A stretch of DNA of 6,310 bases from a virus (taxonomy: Duplodnaviria; Heunggongvirae; Uroviricota; Caudoviricetes), in IMG/VR virus record IMGVR_UViG_2660238309_000007, positions 1 to 6,310 of that record, one strand, 5' to 3'. Position numbers and translations under genes: made by a program. Positions 1 through 6,310 of this stretch are shown in pieces; within the stretch, counting starts at the first letter, position 1, and each line of letters starts with the position of its first letter. The notes beneath the pieces were generated by a model. The model did no database searches. It saw only the letters and a program-made list of their open reading frames with translations, and was not told the DNA's origin.

Positions 1-61
1 TGTTGTTCTGAGGTGAGCATATCACCTCTGTTCAGGTGGCCAAATTCAGTGTGCCACTTCA
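1..61. repeat. Left terminal inverted repeat, 61 bp, perfect reverse complement of 6249-6309
   Basis: Direct comparison: the reverse complement of 6249-6309 equals 1-61 base for base; the match breaks at 62 vs 6248. Internal hairpins: gaggtga (10-16) pairs with tcacctc (22-28) around a 5-nt loop, and gtggc (36-40) pairs with gccac (53-57). Confidence 0.9.
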
Positions 62-81
62 GACATTCTGAGGTGACAGCG

Positions 82-960
82 ATGATGACGTTTAACCTGC
101 GTGAACAACAAAAAAGACTACAGGCGCGAATGGATGAGTTACGGGCAGAGATTGCATTTGCTCAGAAGGGCGAAAAGCCATGGCCTTATCGTTCCTGCCT
201 GATGCGTGAAGGTCGCGGATATTGCGAAAAACATGGCGAATATCACACGCATATACTGGTGTGGAGCGATCGTAATGGCGAGGACAGAGAAGAAATTTCA
301 TGCTGCCCTGACTGCTTAATCGCTGAGGCCAACGATTTGACCATGGAGCTGTCGTCCATCAAGGCGGAAGAGCTGACTGATAACGCCGGAATTGCCCTGC
401 GTTTTCGGGACTGCGAGTTTGATAATTATCTGGAGGTTAATCCTGGCGCAGCCAGAAATCTTGCGGCCTGTCGCCGCTATGCGGAGAACTGGCCAGATAT
501 GCTGGAGAACGGTACCAGTCTTGTTATGACCGGCAGTTGTGGTACCGGAAAAAATCATCTGGCTGTGGCTATGGCAAAACACATCATCCGTAACTATCTG
601 GCCAGTGTGGAGATCACCGACGTGATGCGCCTTACCCGTGCTGTGAAAAATTGCTGGCGGAATGACAGCGAAAAAACAGCGGATGAAGTTATTGAGCGTT
701 ATGCGTCAATGGATTTGCTGATCATCGACGAAGTTGGCGTTCAGTTTGGCAGCGCGGCTGAAATGGCTATTTTGCAGGAAATTATCAACGCCAGGTACGA
801 AAGTATCTTGCCCACCATTCTGATCAGTAACCTCTCACCGGAAGAGTTGTGGGCGTTCATCAGTCCCCGAATTGCCGACAGGATCACAGACGGGGGACGC
901 AACTGGTTGTCGTTTAACTGGCCCAGTTACCGTTCTCGTATCAGAGGTGTGGCTGCATGA
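82..960 (+). CDS. DnaC/IstB-like AAA+ helicase loader (phage replication protein)
   Basis: Walker A GSCGTGKNHLAVAMA and Walker B LLIIDEVG in the translation; N-terminal Cys/His cluster (C-x7-C ... CCPDC). Start placed at ATG 82 (GAGGTG Shine-Dalgarno at 70-75) rather than the GTG at 13 of the ORF track. Stop overlaps the next start (ATGA at 957-960). Confidence 0.8.
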   Translation: MMTFNLREQQKRLQARMDELRAEIAFAQKGEKPWPYRSCLMREGRGYCEKHGEYHTHILVWSDRNGEDREEISCCPDCLIAEANDLTMELSSIKAEELTDNAGIALRFRDCEFDNYLEVNPGAARNLAACRRYAENWPDMLENGTSLVMTGSCGTGKNHLAVAMAKHIIRNYLASVEITDVMRLTRAVKNCWRNDSEKTADEVIERYASMDLLIIDEVGVQFGSAAEMAILQEIINARYESILPTILISNLSPEELWAFISPRIADRITDGGRNWLSFNWPSYRSRIRGVAA

Positions 961-2348
961 CAACTCCAGTATGGCGTAACGATGACCTTGAAGGCGCTGT
1001 CATCGGCGCGTTCTTTCTGCGCGGAGCAGATCCTGAAGTGATGGATATTCTGGCCACACTGCCAGCGGACGTTTTTTCTGTACGAGCGTATCAGGATATC
1101 TATACAGGCATCTGCAGACAGGCCCGTGTTTCAGGAGTGATTGACCCCGTGCTGTTGTGTAATGAGATGCCGGAACTTGCCCCGGTGATTACTGATACCG
1201 GGCGTAAAACCTGGGTGAAGTCTTCACTGGAGCACTATGTTGCAGCGTTGCGGCGCAATGCCGCACTGCGCGATGCAGAAAAAACACTGAATGAGGCGCT
1301 GCAGAAATTACGTGATGCGCATACCTGTGAAGCAGCTGAAGATGCCCTGAAGGATGCGCAGAACATGATGGTCACACTGTCGACAGGAAAGGGCGTCATT
1401 CAGCCGGTACATATTGATGATGTGCTTCCGGAAGTGGTTGAGCGTGTTGAATGCCGGAATCAGGGGCTGGAGAAATCCAGGACGTTGATGACCGGTATTG
1501 ATGAACTGGACGCAAAAACAGGCGGTATGGAGCCCGGAGACCTGGTATTCATTGCCGCCCGTCCTTCGATGGGGAAAACCGAACTTGCGCTGGACATCAT
1601 CGACAAGGTGACTGAGCAGGGGCATGGTGTGCTTCTGTTCACCATGGAGATGGCGAACATCCAGATTGGTGAACGTATGGTGTCTGCGGCTGGAGGGATG
1701 CCAGTATCACGCCTGAAATCTGTGGCTCACTTTGAAGATGAAGACTGGACGCGTTTCTCACAAGGGGTGGGGCGGATGACCGGGCGCAATATCTGGATGG
1801 TGGACCAGGCGAACCTGGCCATTGATGAGATATGCGCAACAACGAAACACCACCTGATTAAATATCCGGAAACGGCGCTGGTGGTGGTTGATTATCTCGG
1901 GCTGATAAAAACCCGAACCACGGGGCGTCATGACCTTGCCGTGGGTGAAATCTCAAAGGGGCTTAAAGGCCTGGCAAAATCCGGTGGTTTTCCGTTGATT
2001 GCGCTGAGCCAGCTCTCCCGCGGTGTGGAGTCCAGACCCAATAAACGTCCCATGAACTCAGACCTGAAAAATTCCGGAGAAATAGAGGCGGATGCAGACA
2101 TCATTCTGATGCTTTACAGGGATGAAGTGTACAACCCGGATACGCAGGCCAGGGGCATCGCAGAAATCAATATCACGAAACAACGTAACGGTTCTCTGGG
2201 AACGATTTACCGGCGTTTTTATAACGGACATTTTCTGCCTGTGGACCAGGAAAGTGCACGGGTGCTTTCCACTCCCATGAAGCCCGGCAATCCGCGCAGA
2301 TACAGTAATAAACGAACTGACAGCAGTAAGATGGAGCGTTTCTTTTGA
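957..2348 (+). CDS. DnaB-family replicative helicase
   Basis: N-terminal DnaB-like domain pattern (LEGAVIGAFFL ... YQDIYTGI), Walker A ARPSMGKTELALDI, Walker B LVVVDYLGLI, motif IALSQLSR and late RecA-fold motifs. GAGGTG Shine-Dalgarno at 944-949. ATGA overlap with the upstream loader implies translational coupling. Confidence 0.88.
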   Translation: MTTPVWRNDDLEGAVIGAFFLRGADPEVMDILATLPADVFSVRAYQDIYTGICRQARVSGVIDPVLLCNEMPELAPVITDTGRKTWVKSSLEHYVAALRRNAALRDAEKTLNEALQKLRDAHTCEAAEDALKDAQNMMVTLSTGKGVIQPVHIDDVLPEVVERVECRNQGLEKSRTLMTGIDELDAKTGGMEPGDLVFIAARPSMGKTELALDIIDKVTEQGHGVLLFTMEMANIQIGERMVSAAGGMPVSRLKSVAHFEDEDWTRFSQGVGRMTGRNIWMVDQANLAIDEICATTKHHLIKYPETALVVVDYLGLIKTRTTGRHDLAVGEISKGLKGLAKSGGFPLIALSQLSRGVESRPNKRPMNSDLKNSGEIEADADIILMLYRDEVYNPDTQARGIAEINITKQRNGSLGTIYRRFYNGHFLPVDQESARVLSTPMKPGNPRRYSNKRTDSSKMERFF

Positions 2349-2602
2349 ACAACCAGACAATGACTTTTACCCCTGAACAATTGCGTAAACACGCGCAGGA
2401 AATGCTGCGTCATGCTGAACAACTCGAAAAAACGGGCATAACAAAAGATGCTATCCGTAAAGATATGGTACCCGCGCTTCGGGAACTGATGCAGGCGAAG
2501 CATCGCGCACAGAAAGCAGTAGATGAGCTGGTGGACTGTGTGGCAGAGCTGGAAACCAGAGTCGGAAAGTTTGAAAAACTGGTGCAGGAGGCGCTGCGCT
2601 GA
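2345..2602 (+). CDS. Small hypothetical protein, predicted coiled-coil (about 80-85 aa)
   Basis: ORF in the track; start ambiguous between TTG 2345 (GGAG about 10 nt upstream, overlaps helicase stop) and ATG 2360. No recognisable catalytic motif. Position matches the small-gene nin/ren zone of lambdoid phages. Confidence 0.5.
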   Translation: MNNQTMTFTPEQLRKHAQEMLRHAEQLEKTGITKDAIRKDMVPALRELMQAKHRAQKAVDELVDCVAELETRVGKFEKLVQEALR

Positions 2603-2697
2603 TGCGCCATGAGTTTGTTTTGCCCTGGCTTGTGCGCGATCATTATGTCCCTGGTGGAAAGCCCGGGATAAAAATCACCGAACCGGAGAGTATTTGA
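2602..2697 (+). CDS. 31-aa micro-ORF, translationally coupled on both sides (hypothetical)
   Basis: ATG at 2602 overlaps the stop of the upstream ORF (TGATG) and its own TGA at 2695-2697 overlaps the ATG of the NinH-like gene (TGATG). Translation MRHEFVLPWLVRDHYVPGGKPGIKITEPESI. Not in the ORF track (too short). Confidence 0.3.
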   Translation: MRHEFVLPWLVRDHYVPGGKPGIKITEPESI

Positions 2698-2897
2698 TGA
2701 GCGTCAAAATTCAAACGATACCGGAACTGCTTATCCAGACACGAGGTAATATGACCGAAGTTTCACGAATGCTGAACTGTAATCGCGCCACGGTAAGAAA
2801 ATATGCTGAAGATAAAGAGGGCAAAGGGCACGCCATTGTTGATGGTGTTCTGATTGTTCATCGTGGATGGGACAGGGGTAAAGACAGTGATGCGTGA
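2697..2897 (+). CDS. ninH: NinH-like small DNA-binding protein with Fis-type helix-turn-helix
   Basis: 66 aa; [22 protein letters not shown] matches the Fis/NtrC-type HTH signature (TRGN-x-T ... R-x-T-hydrophobic-RK); size and position immediately upstream of Q match lambdoid NinH. GGAG at 2684-2687 upstream of ATG 2697. Recalled family resemblance, not searched. Confidence 0.75.
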
Positions 2898-3270
2898 TAT
2901 TCAGCAGGTTCTTGAGCGCTGGGGCGCGTGGGTGGCTAATAATCATGAGGATGTGACCTGGTCGTCCATTGCTGCCGGTTTTAAGGGATTAATCCCTTCA
3001 AAAGTAAAATCCCGCCCGCAATGCTGTGACGATGACGCGATGGTTATATGTGGGTGTATGGCCCGCCTTAACCGGAACAACAACGATCTACATGACTTGC
3101 TGGTTGACTACTACGTGTTTGGGATGACATTCATGACGCTGGCGCGGAAGCATGGATGCTCAGATGGTTATATAGGAAAGAAGCTACAAAAAGCCGAGGG
3201 GGTGGTGGAAGGAATGTTGATGATGTTGGGTGTCCGGTTAGAAATGGACAAATATATTGAACATCCCTGA
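2890..3270 (+). CDS. Q-type late antiterminator (phage 82 / QuuD-like family)
   Basis: 126 aa from ATG 2890 (8-nt overlap with the NinH-like stop). Sequence [33 protein letters not shown] ... [16 protein letters not shown] resembles, from memory, the small Q antiterminators of cryptic lambdoid prophages. Followed by a short intergenic region and an intrinsic terminator as expected for a pR'/tR' cassette. Confidence 0.75.
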
Positions 3271-3356
3271 TGGTAAGGGGCGACTTTCTAGAAAATATTT
3301 TACGTACGTAAAAAACGGGATATTCTGTTAAGAGTGGTTGCTTCGCCACACAGCTT
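3271..3356 (+). promoter_or_regulatory. Expected location of late promoter (pR'-like) and Q-utilisation site
   Basis: Inferred from position between the Q stop and the terminator; AT-rich stretch with weak hexamers (ttttac 3298-3303, 17-bp spacer, tattct 3321-3326). No strong consensus match. Confidence 0.3.
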
Positions 3357-3382
3357 AAACCCGCCTCCGGGCGGGTTTTTTA
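3357..3382 (+). terminator. Rho-independent terminator (tR'-like)
   Basis: Stem cccgcc (3360-3365), loop tccg, stem ggcggg (3370-3375), then T-tract tttttt (3376-3381); an upstream aaa can pair with the T-tract. Confidence 0.75.
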
Positions 3383-3431
3383 TGCCTGAAAAACGGTACA
3401 GGACGTTAAACACGCTGGTGGTCAGATGAGT

Positions 3432-3460
3432 TTGCAGATGTGATGACATATGGTTATTAT
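3432..3460 (+). promoter_or_regulatory. Candidate sigma70 promoter for the tRNA array
   Basis: ttgcag (3432-3437), 17-bp spacer, tattat (3455-3460), about 10 nt upstream of the first tRNA. Moderate hexamer quality only. Confidence 0.35.
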
Positions 3461-3469
3461 TCTGCCTCC

Positions 3470-3546
3470 GGCCCTTTAGCTCAGTTGGTCAGAGCGAGCG
3501 ACTCATAATCGCCAGGTCGCTGGTTCAAGTCCAGCAAGGGCCACCA
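3470..3546 (+). tRNA. tRNA-Ile2 (anticodon CAU, presumably lysidine-modified, reads AUA)
   Basis: Cloverleaf read by hand: acceptor ggccctt/aagggcc, D-arm gctc...gagc, anticodon loop ctCATaa (CAT at 3504-3506), T-loop ttcaagt, discriminator a, encoded CCA. C4 and C5 in the acceptor stem and close similarity to enterobacterial ileX-type tRNA favour Ile2 over Met. Confidence 0.8.
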
Positions 3547-3547
3547 A

Positions 3548-3624
3548 CCACCACTAGCTCATCCGGATAGAGCATCAACCTTCTAAGTTGACGGTGCGAG
3601 GTTCGAGTCCTCGGTGGTGGGCCA
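3548..3624 (+). tRNA. tRNA-Arg (anticodon UCU, reads AGA/AGG)
   Basis: Acceptor ccaccac/gtggtgg (7 perfect pairs), D-arm gctc/gagc, anticodon stem tcaac/gttga with loop ctTCTaa (TCT at 3582-3584), T-arm cgagg-ttcgagt-cctcg, encoded CCA. Confidence 0.85.
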
Positions 3625-3626
3625 GC

Positions 3627-3702
<76 letters not shown>

Positions 3703-3705
3703 TAT

Positions 3706-3780
<75 letters not shown>

Positions 3781-3894
3781 TGACCTTTCTTAAAGTACTC
3801 CAACCTACTGAATCCTAAGGGATACGGCTTTAAGCCTCCTTGCAGAGTTACTTACTGTAACCCACTGTGTAACCCTCTCAGGGCATGCAGACAT

Positions 3895-5499
3895 ATGATT
3901 CAGCTATCCAGTAGTCACAAACTTCCAGCAGTCTACTATCTCTACCAGCGTAACGGCGTCTACTACTTCCGTCTTAGGGTCAGACAATCAAACAATGATA
4001 GAATGACCTCAATATCATTACGGACCAAGGATAGACGCACCGCTATGGCTTACTCAAGGCACATAAAGGCAGCACTCAAGGCAATACACGCAGACAGACC
4101 CAACGCTACCTATGAGGAAATGAGGGAACACCTTAAGGACATCGCTGAGTGTGAACTGTCTATGGGCCGTTCAGATCTCTTTGAGCCTGACATGAGGGAT
4201 ATCTACCGGGACCAATACGGAGAACTTGGTGAGAGCCTTACCGATGCTCTGGCTAGTGAGCCGCTAAGCATTGACCAGCATCGTTACATCAATGAGGCCC
4301 TGAAGGTGCTAAAAGCCTGTATGAGGCGTATCGAAGCGGGAGACAGTCAGCCTCTGATAGATTACGTCGATCTTTTTAATGATATTGATAGGCAAGATAA
4401 CCAAGCAGACTCTGTGTCCCTATCTGTTAATGCTCCAGAAGTAAAACCAGAAGTTACGCCTAGCATTACCATAGCGAGCCTCTTTGAACAATACGAAGCG
4501 GAGAACTATCAGAACTGGAAGCCTGCAACCTTAAGGGAAAACAAGGCGTCACACGCTGCGTTAATCGAAATATTCGACCATCTGGGTCTCAATGCAGACG
4601 CTAACAGGGCTGACATGCTTAGGGTCCGTGATGTGCTCCAGCAGTTACCTAGGAACCGTAAGCAGCGCTTCAAGGATGTCCCACTTGCTGACCTGTTGAG
4701 CCGTGAAGATAAGACAGATTGTCTGGATGTCGTTACCATCAACAACAAGTATCTTATTAAGATGGCTGCTGTCTTTAGGTGGGCTGTGCGCAATGACTTG
4801 ATTAAAAAGAACATGACTGAGGGTCTGGAGCTTAAAGTCCCTCAGCGTAAAGCCTCAGGGGCCCGTAACGCCTTCTCTACGGAGCAGGTGGGGCAACTAC
4901 TGGTCGCAGCTAAGGCATACTCTCAGAAGACCTCTGGTAAGCCGTATCATTATTATGTTACCGCCTTGGCTGCTATCACTGGGGCGAGACTCAATGAAAT
5001 AGCCCAACTACAGGTCAAAGACGTCAGGACCACTGAGGCGGGAACCGTTTATATTCATATCAATGAAGACGATAGTAGTCTACCCGGTAAGAGCATCAAG
5101 AACGCTCATAGTGACCGCTGTGTGCCTCTGGTCGATGGGGCCTATGGTTTTATATTGGCTGACTTTATGGCGCTTGTAGAGACCCGTAGAGGCGCTGACG
5201 GTGATGACGCTATGGTGTTCGATGGTCTGCGTCTCATGAAGAACGGTTACGGTGAGCAGGTGAGTAAATGGTTTAATCGGACGTTGTTGCCTAAAGTCCT
5301 CGTAGACCGTAGCGGCTTAGCGTTTCACTCGTTTAGACATACAGTTGCGGCCCAGTTAAAACAACATGGGGTCGAGTTGGCGTATGCACAGGCGATCATG
5401 GGGCATAGTTCAGGGTCTATTACGTACGACCGTTATGCTAAAGAGGTCGAGGTTGATAGGCTGGTCAATGTGATGGCTGATGTTTATAAGGAGACCTAG
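3895..5499 (+). CDS. Tyrosine recombinase / phage-type integrase (534 aa)
   Basis: C-terminal catalytic signature in the translation: ITGARLNEI (Arg), LAFHSFRHTVA (H-x-x-R), AIMGHSSG (His), SITYDRY (catalytic Tyr). N-terminal YYLYQRNGVYYFRLRV resembles an integrase N-terminal DNA-binding motif. Lies immediately 3' of the tRNA array. No strong Shine-Dalgarno upstream of ATG 3895. Confidence 0.88.
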   Translation: MIQLSSSHKLPAVYYLYQRNGVYYFRLRVRQSNNDRMTSISLRTKDRRTAMAYSRHIKAALKAIHADRPNATYEEMREHLKDIAECELSMGRSDLFEPDMRDIYRDQYGELGESLTDALASEPLSIDQHRYINEALKVLKACMRRIEAGDSQPLIDYVDLFNDIDRQDNQADSVSLSVNAPEVKPEVTPSITIASLFEQYEAENYQNWKPATLRENKASHAALIEIFDHLGLNADANRADMLRVRDVLQQLPRNRKQRFKDVPLADLLSREDKTDCLDVVTINNKYLIKMAAVFRWAVRNDLIKKNMTEGLELKVPQRKASGARNAFSTEQVGQLLVAAKAYSQKTSGKPYHYYVTALAAITGARLNEIAQLQVKDVRTTEAGTVYIHINEDDSSLPGKSIKNAHSDRCVPLVDGAYGFILADFMALVETRRGADGDDAMVFDGLRLMKNGYGEQVSKWFNRTLLPKVLVDRSGLAFHSFRHTVAAQLKQHGVELAYAQAIMGHSSGSITYDRYAKEVEVDRLVNVMADVYKET

Positions 5500-5587
5500 A
5501 GGAGACCATAGTCTAGGATGACACTTACTACAGACCTGTGTGGTCATGTTTTTGACTCATAGTTTTCTCTACTTGTCAAGGGATAAT

Positions 5588-5610
5588 TAATACGACTCAC
5601 TATAGGGAGA
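5588..5610 (+). promoter_or_regulatory. T7 RNA polymerase promoter, perfect 23-bp class III consensus (copy 1)
   Basis: taatacgactcactatagggaga at 5588-5610, exact match to the T7 consensus -17 to +6; predicted +1 G at 5605; transcription rightward on the + strand. Confidence 0.85.
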
Positions 5611-5708
5611 AGGGACACAAAAAGTTTTCTCTTCTAGGATGACACTTACTACAGACCTGTGCGGTCATGTTTTTGACTCATAGTTTTCTCTGCTTGTCAA
5701 GGGGTAAT

Positions 5709-5731
5709 TAATACGACTCACTATAGGGAGA
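5709..5731 (+). promoter_or_regulatory. T7 RNA polymerase promoter, perfect 23-bp consensus (copy 2)
   Basis: taatacgactcactatagggaga at 5709-5731; same orientation as copy 1. Confidence 0.85.
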
Positions 5732-5828
5732 AGGGACACAAAAAGTTTTCTCTTCTAGGATGACACTTACTACAGACCTGTGTGGTCATGTTTTTGACTC
5801 ATGGTTTTCTCTACTTGTCAAGGATAAT

Positions 5829-5851
5829 TAATACGACTCACTATAGGGAGA
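5829..5851 (+). promoter_or_regulatory. T7 RNA polymerase promoter, perfect 23-bp consensus (copy 3)
   Basis: taatacgactcactatagggaga at 5829-5851; same orientation. Confidence 0.85.
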
Positions 5852-6048
5852 AGGGACACAAAAAGTTTTCTCTTCTAGGACAACTAACCGTAACTTATCG
5901 CATCCTTTCAGGGGCGGGATGACCAATTACAGACACCAAGCGTTCTACTTAAAGTGAATGCTTCCTGTGTGCTCTGGGTCAGTCGATAAGTGAATAGCAA
6001 TAAGACACAATCATCTTAATTATGGTCTCTAGTCCCTACAGGGGCTTA

Positions 6049-6192
6049 ACTTAAAGTTAACTTAAAGACACAATTAAAGATTAACTTATAGTATTACTTA
6101 AAGTTAACTTAAAGACACAATTAGAGATTAACTTTAAGTATTAAATAAAAGATTTAATTAAAGACCAATTAAAGATTAACTCTAAGGGAATA
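6049..6192. repeat. AT-rich short tandem repeat array (TTAAAG / ACTTAAAG motifs; two 47-bp units plus degenerate copies)
   Basis: 6049-6095 (acttaaagttaacttaaagacacaattaaagattaacttatagtatt) and 6096-6142 differ at only 3 positions; 6143-6192 continues with degenerate aattaaag units. No ORF. Lies about 200 bp downstream of the third T7 promoter. Confidence 0.85.
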
Positions 6193-6248
6193 CCTTAAGG
6201 GGTGATGATATTTATAATAATCAATCACCAAACCTATAGGTCTTCTCT

Positions 6249-6309
6249 TGAAGTGGCACACTGAATTTGGCCACCTGAACAGAGGTGATATGCTCACCTC
6301 AGAACAACA
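6249..6309. repeat. Right terminal inverted repeat, 61 bp, perfect reverse complement of 1-61
   Basis: See left copy; perfect over 61 bp, with the same internal hairpins on the opposite strand. Confidence 0.9.
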
Positions 6310-6310
6310 C

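Follow-up and report, generated by a model that had tools for sequence, protein, structure and literature searches.

A tRNA-Gly-specific integrative island with T7-group promoters inside a lambdoid prophage, and its possible role as a satellite of T7-like phages

How do exact promoters of T7, the model virulent phage of the textbooks and the parent of the expression system in widest use, come to stand on the same short contig as the replication and antitermination genes of a lambdoid prophage? The DNA that raises this question is a stretch of 6,310 nucleotides (nt), positions 1 to 6,310 of the IMG/VR virus record IMGVR_UViG_2660238309_000007, referred to throughout, at its full length, as the window. 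An earlier reading of its letters alone (the sequence-only reading) had taken it for a mosaic, in which a lambdoid block is joined to an AT-rich, T7-like block, either as a chimera of two unrelated phage lineages or by insertion into a prophage late region. Our study showed that the mosaic is real, yet that it is no fusion of two phage lineages: positions 3781-6248 are the left 2.47 kb of an integrative island of about 6 kb that is specific for a glycine transfer RNA gene (tRNA-Gly). The explanation that best covers the whole window, and that we consider probable even with the satellite proposal developed below included in it, is that of a chromosome stretch of Escherichia coli/Shigella flexneri type, lying between two inverted copies of an IS911-family insertion sequence (IS) and made up of a lambdoid prophage segment and this island. 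The layout was derived from a six-frame list of open reading frames (ORFs), a tRNA scan and repeat scans, and domains were assigned with Pfam; features lie on the + strand unless stated otherwise.

The insertion can be placed to the nucleotide. Over positions 62-3780, identity is 99.9% with prophages of complete E. coli genomes and 88-93% with phiP27 and Stx-converting phages, and every prophage match stops at 3780, the last base of the tRNA-Gly gene. Two IMG/VR contigs (L066 and L067; we refer to relatives by such numbers where they have to be told apart) are 100% identical to window positions 1-3780, including the IS junction at 61/62, and continue beyond 3780 with the native post-tRNA prophage sequence and a holin gene; since native prophage DNA follows the tRNA-Gly gene in them, they represent empty sites. 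In the intact relative L007, too, the tRNA-Gly gene is followed by native sequence, the tRNA array giving way to holin, lysozyme and other late genes. What distinguishes the window from L066 and L067 is an insertion exactly at the 3' end of the tRNA-Gly gene, between the antiterminator gene Q and the lysis genes, and position 3780 is the attachment point of the island, attL. The earlier idea of an insertion into a prophage late region was therefore right, otherwise identical prophages having an empty tRNA-Gly site and then holin and lysozyme genes. The junction had been misplaced, however: it lies at 3780/3781 and not at about 3400, the tRNA array being the prophage's own, and the tRNA gene acts as the attachment site of the integrase and not as a general hotspot of recombination. 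The identical junction between tRNA-Gly and island occurs in three independent places, namely L008, a S. flexneri draft assembly with a different upstream prophage gene (99.75% identity over 2.8 kb), L030, a 7.3-kb IMG/VR contig, and L031/L032, an IMG/VR prophage contig of 44.5 kb with 100% identity over window positions 3665-6310. That a tRNA-Gly island has been inserted into the prophage we regard as settled, with very little room for doubt.

What kind of element was inserted? It opens with an arm beside attL that also holds the integrase leader (3781..3894), which is near-identical to the DNA right after the chromosomal tRNA-Gly gene glyU in L004 and is conserved in chromosomal glyU islands. 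It then encodes a tRNA-Gly-specific tyrosine integrase of 534 amino acids (aa) (3895..5499; Pfam Phage_integrase, 2.1e-17; PHROG integrase, 1.9e-44), which starts 115 nt after the tRNA-Gly gene, so that a tyrosine recombinase stands beside the 3' end of a tRNA gene. The integrase also matches DUF6538, below the curated cut-off of Pfam, and has a counterpart of 100% identity under the name 'site-specific integrase [Shigella flexneri]', in a 769-member cluster dominated by S. flexneri. A search of the complete E. coli genomes at near-identity (megablast) returned no match for 3781-6248; at lower stringency, relatives were found in 386 of 5426 such genomes (~7%), 65 of them covering at least 80% of the segment at 80-93% identity. 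The E. coli copies that were inspected lie directly after glyU, beside actS and xdhA. The family extends across Enterobacterales: scanning one genome per species with an integrase profile gave 20 loci, which span Klebsiella, Citrobacter, Enterobacter, Pectobacterium, Proteus, Morganella, Buttiauxella, Kluyvera, Rouxiella, Lonsdalea and others, and 14 of which have a tRNA-Gly(CCC) gene, as called by ARAGORN, just upstream.

The architecture of the family is uniform. Islands with both ends on the contig measure 5.45-6.45 kb, and on either side of them the tRNA 3' end is repeated directly over 17-21 nt. Intact islands are present, for instance, in E. coli LR-64-1 (NZ_AP027588.1, 909,566-915,656) and in strain 21AR0133. 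The genes are all on one strand and keep the same order: the integrase comes first, in some members with a gene of ~215 aa overlapping its stop, and after a non-coding stretch of ~1 kb there follow a Rha/Ant- or KilA-N-type protein, a protein of ~65 aa, a DUF6971 protein (136-165 aa), a protein of 330-400 aa and finally attR. A distant relative provides a separate instance of insertion at a prophage tRNA-Gly: it is a 6356-bp insert after the tRNA-Gly gene of another lambdoid prophage, and its attR has the native 3' end of the tRNA. In a blastn search suited to distant matches, 3781-6248 found only two among 50,697 phage records, both promoter-sized, and the sole island match among plasmids was one to the integrase, at 81% identity, on an Enterobacter plasmid. 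The latter stretch (NZ_CP126871.1, 24,917-25,906) lies without any annotated feature on a 58.7-kb Enterobacter hormaechei plasmid and may be a copy of the island on a plasmid. At glyU of E. coli LR-64-1, a second and unrelated small island, encoding a short tyrosine recombinase and a DUF6945 protein, is present in tandem (L004, 6258-12700); it may use a regenerated att site.

The non-coding DNA behind the integrase holds the feature that first drew attention to the window. A 121-bp tandem repeat of 3.1 copies (5512..5880, from the repeat scans) has one T7 class III promoter per unit, and the perfect T7 promoter array of the sequence-only reading is indeed there: three exact 23-nt class III promoters, TAATACGACTCACTATAGGGAGA, at 5588-5610, 5709-5731 and 5829-5851, with the +1 G at 5605, 5726 and 5846, all directed away from the integrase. 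Six promoters of T7 itself have the very 23-mer TAATACGACTCACTATAGGGAGA, and the identity to T7 phi13 extends over up to 27 nt; the 23-mer also occurs twice in the relative L004, at a chance expectation of 0.00. The 121-bp unit is present in 63 complete E. coli chromosomes and in zero plasmids, in one copy in L030, two in L001/L002 and three in the window and L008/L032. It is located at 5512-5880 of the window, 3588-3714 of L030 and 1990-2230 of L004. Its copy number differs among islands that are otherwise near-identical, and the units differ from one another by 3 substitutions or a 1-nt deletion; their near-identity suggests recent expansion and contraction.

Promoters of this kind are shared by the family. 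The core CACTATAGG is found in 10 of 12 complete islands, in one to several copies, 250-1300 nt past the integrase and on the + strand only, and the specificity region upstream of the core varies with the host. Islands of the E. coli/Shigella subfamily have exact T7 promoters. Besides one exact T7 promoter, the Klebsiella pneumoniae island carries AATTAGGGCACACTATAGGGAGA, all 23 positions of which agree with phi9, phi10 and phi13, promoters annotated in Klebsiella phage K11. The variant of Proteus and Kluyvera, TTAACCCACACTATAGGGAGA, occurs in 6-8 copies in each of two ~39-kb IMG/VR genomes that encode a T7-like RNA polymerase, DNA polymerase, portal, capsid and terminase, and that of Citrobacter and Enterobacter, AACTATCACTATAGGGAGA, is found in 22 IMG/VR contigs, 20 of which (39-41 kb each) have T7-like portal and/or capsid genes in the stretches retrieved. 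From promoters that are exact, uniformly oriented and matched to the host, we consider it very likely that the island family would respond to the RNA polymerases of T7-group phages.

Since the T7 promoter 23-mer is common in cloning vectors, and the window ends in IS repeats, as is typical of short-read contigs, an artefact had to be weighed, either an assembly chimera at a tRNA repeat or contamination with a T7-promoter vector. This is scarcely credible. The same junction is present in at least three independent assemblies, and in complete genomes the family stands at tRNA-Gly between natural flanks; moreover, the promoter unit is found in those 63 complete E. coli chromosomes but in no plasmid, its flanks are not vector-like, and relatives carry promoters of phage K11 and other non-laboratory types.

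Does the resemblance to T7 go beyond the promoters? At the T7 primary origin, known from work of the Richardson laboratory, the tandem promoters phi1.1A and phi1.1B are followed by an AT-rich region, where DNA synthesis is primed through transcription by T7 RNA polymerase. The island has a similar layout, tandem T7 promoters (5588-5851) being followed in the same orientation by an AT-rich segment, and the order of promoters and then AT minimum is seen in most relatives too. The segment in question, already noticed by the sequence-only reading, is a repeat array at 6046..6181 with units of 11, 23 and 47 nt (TTAACTTAAAG...; Tandem Repeats Finder) and a GC content of 0.18. Unlike the T7 origin, the island has ~200 nt, including a conserved motif, between the last promoter and the AT-rich array, its array is longer and internally repeated, and its promoters have the class III consensus and not the sequences of phi1.1A and phi1.1B.

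Comparison with T7 (coordinates from NC_001604) by blastn-short gave significance to the promoters only, the remaining matches being 11-12-mers, and a k-mer and shuffle test was used in its place for the array. Positions 6040-6200 share eleven 9-mers with T7 5925-6010, compared with 0.96 in dinucleotide shuffles, none of 1000 of which reached eleven, and the best 86-nt window across the T7 genome starts at 5931, inside the AT-rich region of the primary origin; the shared words include AATTAGAGATT and TTAACTTTAAG. Primase-type motifs (GGGTC, TGGTC and GTGTC) number 13 on one strand of 5500-6248 against 1.7 ± 1.2 expected, a count inflated by the repeats. One GGGTC, the T7 primase motif, lies in the first unit of a (TAGGGTCTCTC)n array at 6234..6248, where the island is cut by the IS with the target duplication TCT; in L004 and intact relatives about 14 TAGGGTCTCTC units follow the AT-rich array, and the array is uninterrupted in L030 and IS-interrupted in L032. 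The sequence YTAAAG, around which the short repeats of the left end of T7 are built, reaches 30.7 per kb in the window's array, on the top strand only, and in T7 28.6 per kb at 1-420 versus 1.0 per kb in the interior, a likeness at the level of the motif only. Its density is 0-3.4 per kb in four relatives, from Klebsiella, Proteus, Buttiauxella and Citrobacter braakii, in which promoters of other types predominate or are the only ones. No homology to the T7 terminal repeat or concatemer junction was found, and no 10-mer or 11-mer is common to the array and the SRL region. From these likenesses we infer that the region may serve as a replication origin or a packaging signal.

The motif between promoters and array, of about 59 nt (5884-5942, CTAACCGTAACTTATCGCATCCTTTCAGGGGCGGGATGACCA...), came from the comparison of ten islands in five genera (E. 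coli, Klebsiella, Morganella, Rouxiella and Edaphovirga), in all of which it is near-invariant. These islands have differing promoters and integrases with 80-86% amino-acid identity, and the motif is better conserved than their coding DNA. RNAalifold gives a structure for it, on which covariation is uninformative because the columns are near-invariant. The motif may be a site for a factor encoded by the island or by the host.

Given promoters and an origin-like region, one could ask whether the right block is what remains of a temperate T7-like (Autographiviridae) prophage that had integrated at tRNA-Gly, the more so as the tetranucleotide usage of the integrase also resembles that of T7. Such an origin is most improbable: a tblastx comparison of T7 with the window and L004, L006, L010, L027 and L030 gave nothing at E <= 1e-3, the phage database holds only the promoter-sized matches, and islands of 5.45-6.45 kb, with both att sites and the same non-T7 genes in many genera, are unlike the products of random decay. 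The same absence of T7 protein similarity, together with phage matches in DNA that do not exceed the size of a promoter, speaks against the idea of a T7-like block fused to the DNA of another phage lineage. Of the two blocks, whose best matches the sequence-only reading had advised comparing, the left one matched lambdoid prophages and phages and the right one no phage beyond the promoter-sized stretches, and no phage co-linear with either the whole window or the right block was found by megablast or blastn against phages and plasmids. At the level of sequence, the T7 likeness of the right block is purely cis-regulatory, residing in its promoters and origin-like AT-rich repeats.

In composition, too, the mosaic proved genuine in the GC and k-mer profiles by segment, but both its boundary and its integrase had been described wrongly. 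The GC content is 0.505 in the prophage (62-3469), 0.563 in the tRNA array, 0.485 in the integrase coding sequence, 0.394 in the promoter repeats and 0.184 in the AT-rich array, so that the sharp change is limited to the last ~750 bases; the right block is not AT-rich throughout, but only at 5500-6248, where GC falls from 0.39 to 0.18. The codons of the integrase, said to be AT-biased, are not so by GC content or by GC at third positions (0.52 versus ~0.55 in the left block), yet codon and oligonucleotide usage do set the gene apart. AGG and AGA make up 49% of its Arg codons and ATA 31% of its Ile codons, and its tetranucleotide L1 distance to either half of the left block is 0.51-0.53, compared with 0.36 between the halves. 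The distance to T7 is 0.31 for the integrase and 0.43-0.47 for the left block; the integrase is thus nearer to T7 in tetranucleotide usage than the adjoining prophage DNA is, though without sequence homology to T7. The prophage tRNAs read the rare codons AGA, ACA and GGA, and also ATA if the CAT tRNA is the lysidine tRNA-Ile of the RefSeq annotation, and they adjoin an integrase that is unusually rich in AGA/AGG and ATA codons.

What, then, might the islands do with promoters of T7-group phages? Part of the answer may lie in the genes that intact relatives carry beyond the origin-like region. Scans of the island proteins with Pfam, PHROG and PADLOC recognised only the integrase, the Rha/Ant-like protein, DUF6971 and the product of the optional gene, RAZR; the three were uninformative for the 71-aa and 373-aa core proteins, for which a sequence profile search of the PDB also gave nothing. 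A fold search showed that the 373-aa protein is capsid-like, with the HK97 fold. The gene just upstream encodes the DUF6971 protein, a small beta/alpha domain followed by long charged helices, whose sole real match in the fold search is the uncharacterised PDB entry 5EUR. In L004 (4210-4620) it is 96% identical to 5EUR, 'hypothetical protein SF216' of S. flexneri 5a M90T, and a crystal structure therefore exists for this core protein. The genomic context of the 5EUR protein, a T7-wired island in which it is encoded upstream of a capsid-like gene, seems to have gone unremarked. By its position and shape, DUF6971 might act as a scaffold. The ~6-kb contigs that hold the capsid-like gene are ordinary short contigs with flanks and not free circles, and a scan of IMG/VR with a capsid profile found only distant relatives in larger prophage contigs and no free ~6-kb forms.

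Integrase islands of about 6 kb with helper-type promoters, an origin-like region and a single HK97-fold gene have the general make-up of a phage satellite. We propose the following sequence of events. When a T7-type phage infects, its RNA polymerase would fire the island promoters, and the genes downstream of them would be transcribed. Like transcription at the T7 primary origin, this would also prime DNA synthesis, and the phage replisome would thereby replicate the island. The island could then use its own capsid-like protein and parts of the helper to spread, and might interfere with the phage. Judging by the capsid fold, by a small size that is uniform and goes with intact att sites, by the mimicry of the origin and by the analogy with the PICMI, PLE and cf-PICI satellites, we put the chances that the island is a satellite of virulent T7-group phages at about even. 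A limited literature collection contained no description of chromosomal islands with T7-group promoters or of satellites of T7-like phages, and we know of no satellite or natural chromosomal element wired to T7 RNA polymerase. With slightly less assurance still, and just short of an even chance, the family may represent an undescribed class of satellites, having an induction switch made of helper promoters, a copied T7 origin, small capsids built or remodelled with their own HK97-fold protein, RAZR on occasion, and promoters that track the T7-like phages of each host genus.

Several points weigh against this proposal. The islands of Pectobacterium and Morganella, two of the 12 complete ones, have no CACTATAGG-type core by the pattern used. 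Confidence in the capsid model is moderate (predicted local distance difference test, 70), and neither a portal, a small terminase subunit or an excisionase nor a recognisable pac site emerged from the island scans. No function is known for the ~65-aa protein or for DUF6971, 5EUR itself having been deposited as a hypothetical protein. The similarity to the T7 origin is at the k-mer level and concerns low-complexity AT-rich DNA, with repeats swelling the primase count. T7 degrades host DNA, from which an integrated element would need to escape quickly. Finally, the promoters could be purely a sensor of infection in the service of defence.

This last possibility leads to the main rival, an island triggered by the phage polymerase for defence or as a decoy, and no transmissible satellite. 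Its promoters would sense infection and drive toxic or interfering genes, its array would titrate T7 RNA polymerase and the replisome, its capsid-like protein would poison T7 head assembly, and it would spread by other routes. The optional ~215-aa gene lends itself to such a role. It is RAZR (renamed from PD-T7-4; DUF4145), which overlaps the integrase stop at 9624-10256 of L010, where the PADLOC match has E = 8e-99, at 2170-2811 of L063 and at 14035-14688 of L006; it is an experimentally validated anti-T7 defence gene (PMC9519451, PMC13017515), one that 'often overlaps an integrase gene' (PMC9519451), and it follows right after the integrase in many relatives of our island. Term searches of the same two reports brought up no mention of promoters, of an origin-like region or of a capsid-like gene for the carrier island. 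The lack of packaging genes in the island protein scans fits a defence island as well, and Hochhauser et al. list integrase-only defence islands whose mobility is unclear (PMC10121019). RAZR is optional, however, and absent from many relatives and from the island of the window, where no ORF with a zinc finger and DUF4145 lies between 5499 and 6248 and the promoter repeats directly follow the integrase stop. The conserved core consists instead of the capsid-like protein and DUF6971 and has no known defence gene, PADLOC having found nothing for the core proteins, and the constant size of ~6 kb and the intact att sites from genus to genus, together with promoters that follow the local phages, are what one would expect of an element moving with those phages. 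We consider a pure defence or decoy island unlikely, although less remote than the other rivals, and satellite and defence roles are not mutually exclusive.

If the islands are satellites, they would not belong to any of the named families compared here. The markers of the PICIs (AlpA/Stl, primase-rep and terS), of the cf-PICIs (portal, connectors and terS), of the P4-like elements (Sid, Psu, Delta and alpha) and of the PICMIs (fis and AlpA) were not found with Pfam and PHROG, and integration is at tRNA-Gly. The cf-PICIs are larger, encode portal, connector and small terminase subunit functions and exploit temperate phages; in contrast to them and to SaPIbov5 Ccm, the present ~6-kb islands have one capsid-like gene, and their presumed helpers are virulent phages of the T7 group. 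The PLEs of Vibrio cholerae exceed the present islands several times in size and have a replication initiator of their own. They resemble our proposal in that a PLE is a chromosomal island activated only by a specific virulent phage, the lytic ICP1, upon which it replicates and interferes with its helper; activation of the present islands, by contrast, would be direct, via promoters for the helper polymerase. A PLE is reported to remodel the coat protein of its helper and not to encode one (PMC10945586). The nearest precedent at ~6 kb are the PICMIs (phage-inducible chromosomal minimalist islands) of Vibrionaceae, described in PMC10803314 as very small integrative islands of few genes that depend on virulent phages. 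The PICMIs, however, are placed beside fis and have a core of AlpA, integrase and replication protein with no capsid gene, whereas the present family is at tRNA-Gly and has helper-polymerase promoters, an origin mimic and an HK97-fold protein; no sequence relationship between the two was found. The nesting of a small integrase island in a prophage late region recalls the helper-embedded PICIs. Those interrupt a late gene of their own helper prophage (PMC10111431), whereas the target here is a tRNA gene of a kind also present on the chromosome, as glyU, and the lambdoid prophage is probably a carrier and not the helper.

The carrier itself has the gene content that the sequence-only reading had called lambdoid, a description upheld by the Pfam domains of an IstB/DnaC-like ATPase, DnaB, NinH and Q and by the 99.9% identity to E. 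coli prophages. Its first gene in the window (82..960) encodes an ATP-binding replication protein, a DnaC/IstB-like helicase loader (IstB_IS21, 1.5e-15, and Bac_DnaA), and is 99.9% identical to a RefSeq prophage gene annotated 'ATP-binding protein'. It is followed by a replicative DNA helicase of the DnaB family (957..2348; DnaB_C, 3e-72), matching proteins annotated 'replicative DNA helicase', by a small ORF of 85 aa from the ORF list (2345..2602), given as 'hypothetical protein' at the equivalent position in L007, by NinH (2694..2897; Phage_NinH, 3.6e-26) and by the late-gene antiterminator Q (2890..3270; Phage_antitermQ, 4.2e-54). Q, NinH and a replication module of the DnaC/DnaB type thus stand in lambdoid order, with the lysis region next in co-linear prophages. 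The tRNA array (3470..3780; ARAGORN and Rfam) comprises four tRNAs: Met/Ile(CAT), Arg(TCT), Thr(TGT) and Gly(TCC). Rfam gave nothing besides tRNAs in the window. Between Q and the tRNAs, a GC-rich hairpin is followed by a run of T (3360-3381; CCCGCC TCCG GGCGGG TTTTTT), which is probably the terminator of the prophage late operon (tR'), the target of Q; it is absent from the list of a simple terminator scan, and a scan of 3200-6310 for sigma-70 promoters and terminators gave nothing above chance.

Why does a piece of chromosome appear as a viral record with matching ends? Positions 1-61 and 6249-6309 form a perfect 61-nt inverted repeat located exactly at both ends, a repeat that the sequence-only reading had passed over. 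It could be taken for true inverted terminal repeats of 61 bp, in which case the window would be a small linear element in full, such as a mini-phage or a linear plasmid. Longer assemblies make this extremely improbable. L066 and L067 extend to the left of position 1, and L032 runs past 6310 through a complete IS, with orfA (HTH_Tnp_1) and orfB (rve), after which the island resumes. In L032 the ends of the full IS are TGAAGTGG.../...CCACTTCA, with island sequence picking up after CCACTTCA, and against L030, which is without this IS, the difference amounts to a simple insertion together with the 3-bp target duplication TCT. Inverted repeats starting TGA..., a helix-turn-helix orfA, a DDE-type rve orfB and the target duplication assign the element to the IS911 group of the IS3 family, and RefSeq and E. 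coli matches annotate an IS3-like, IS911-family transposase or element at the position of the left end. The window thus begins with the outer 61 nt of an IS911-family left end (1..61, - strand; TGAAGTGGCACACTG..., reading from inward to outward), the body of which lies to the left, and stops 62 nt into the left end of a second copy in the opposite orientation (6249..6310, 100% identical in L032). Both window ends are the same end of the element in opposite orientations, and the 61-nt repeat therefore marks a contig between two inverted IS copies and no end of a linear genome. The ORFs that start with MSISPLFRWPNSVCHF, at 13-960 (+) and 6169-6297 (-), are by-products of the IS ends. For annotation pipelines this means that IS ends can pass for the inverted terminal repeats of a "complete" viral genome.

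The second IS also bears on the state of this copy of the island, which it cuts at 6248, at the start of the TAGGGTCTCTC array. The attR, a repeat of the tRNA-Gly 3' end, was searched for within the window and is missing from it because the island is truncated there. In sister assemblies, the DNA beyond the IS holds the start of a Rha-type gene, interrupted by IS1, and the DUF6971 and capsid-like genes are gone. With its origin region split by an IS, an IS1 in its Rha gene and the DUF6971 and capsid-like genes lost, the copy is a decaying remnant, no longer functional as a mobile element. It retains an intact integrase and promoters that would be predicted to fire still upon T7 infection. A second and independent IS insertion into the promoter/origin region is seen in the glyU islands of E. 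coli ECMA0423 and S. flexneri SFBU1023 (L022 and L023, ~12,090-12,125), of a different island subfamily, in which an IS911-type end, AATTCAGTGTGCCACTTCA, abuts the promoter core CACTATAGGG. The window as such is an ordinary chromosomal fragment, bounded by IS copies and carrying a degraded copy of the island.

The significance of the locus lies in the family to which this copy belongs. If our proposal is correct, about 7% of complete E. coli genomes, and many genomes of Klebsiella, Citrobacter, Serratia, Proteus and Pectobacterium, would carry elements of ~6 kb that detect infection by T7-group phages through the phages' own promoters. It would explain the "integrase-only" islands that carry RAZR/PD-T7-4. 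Strains with perfect T7 promoters and origin mimics may behave unexpectedly when used with T7-based tools. The promoters would amount to natural catalogues from which the T7-like predators of a host could be predicted, which would be relevant to phage therapy against Klebsiella and E. coli, and the islands and their phages would provide a minimal model of the relationship between satellite and helper among lytic podophages.

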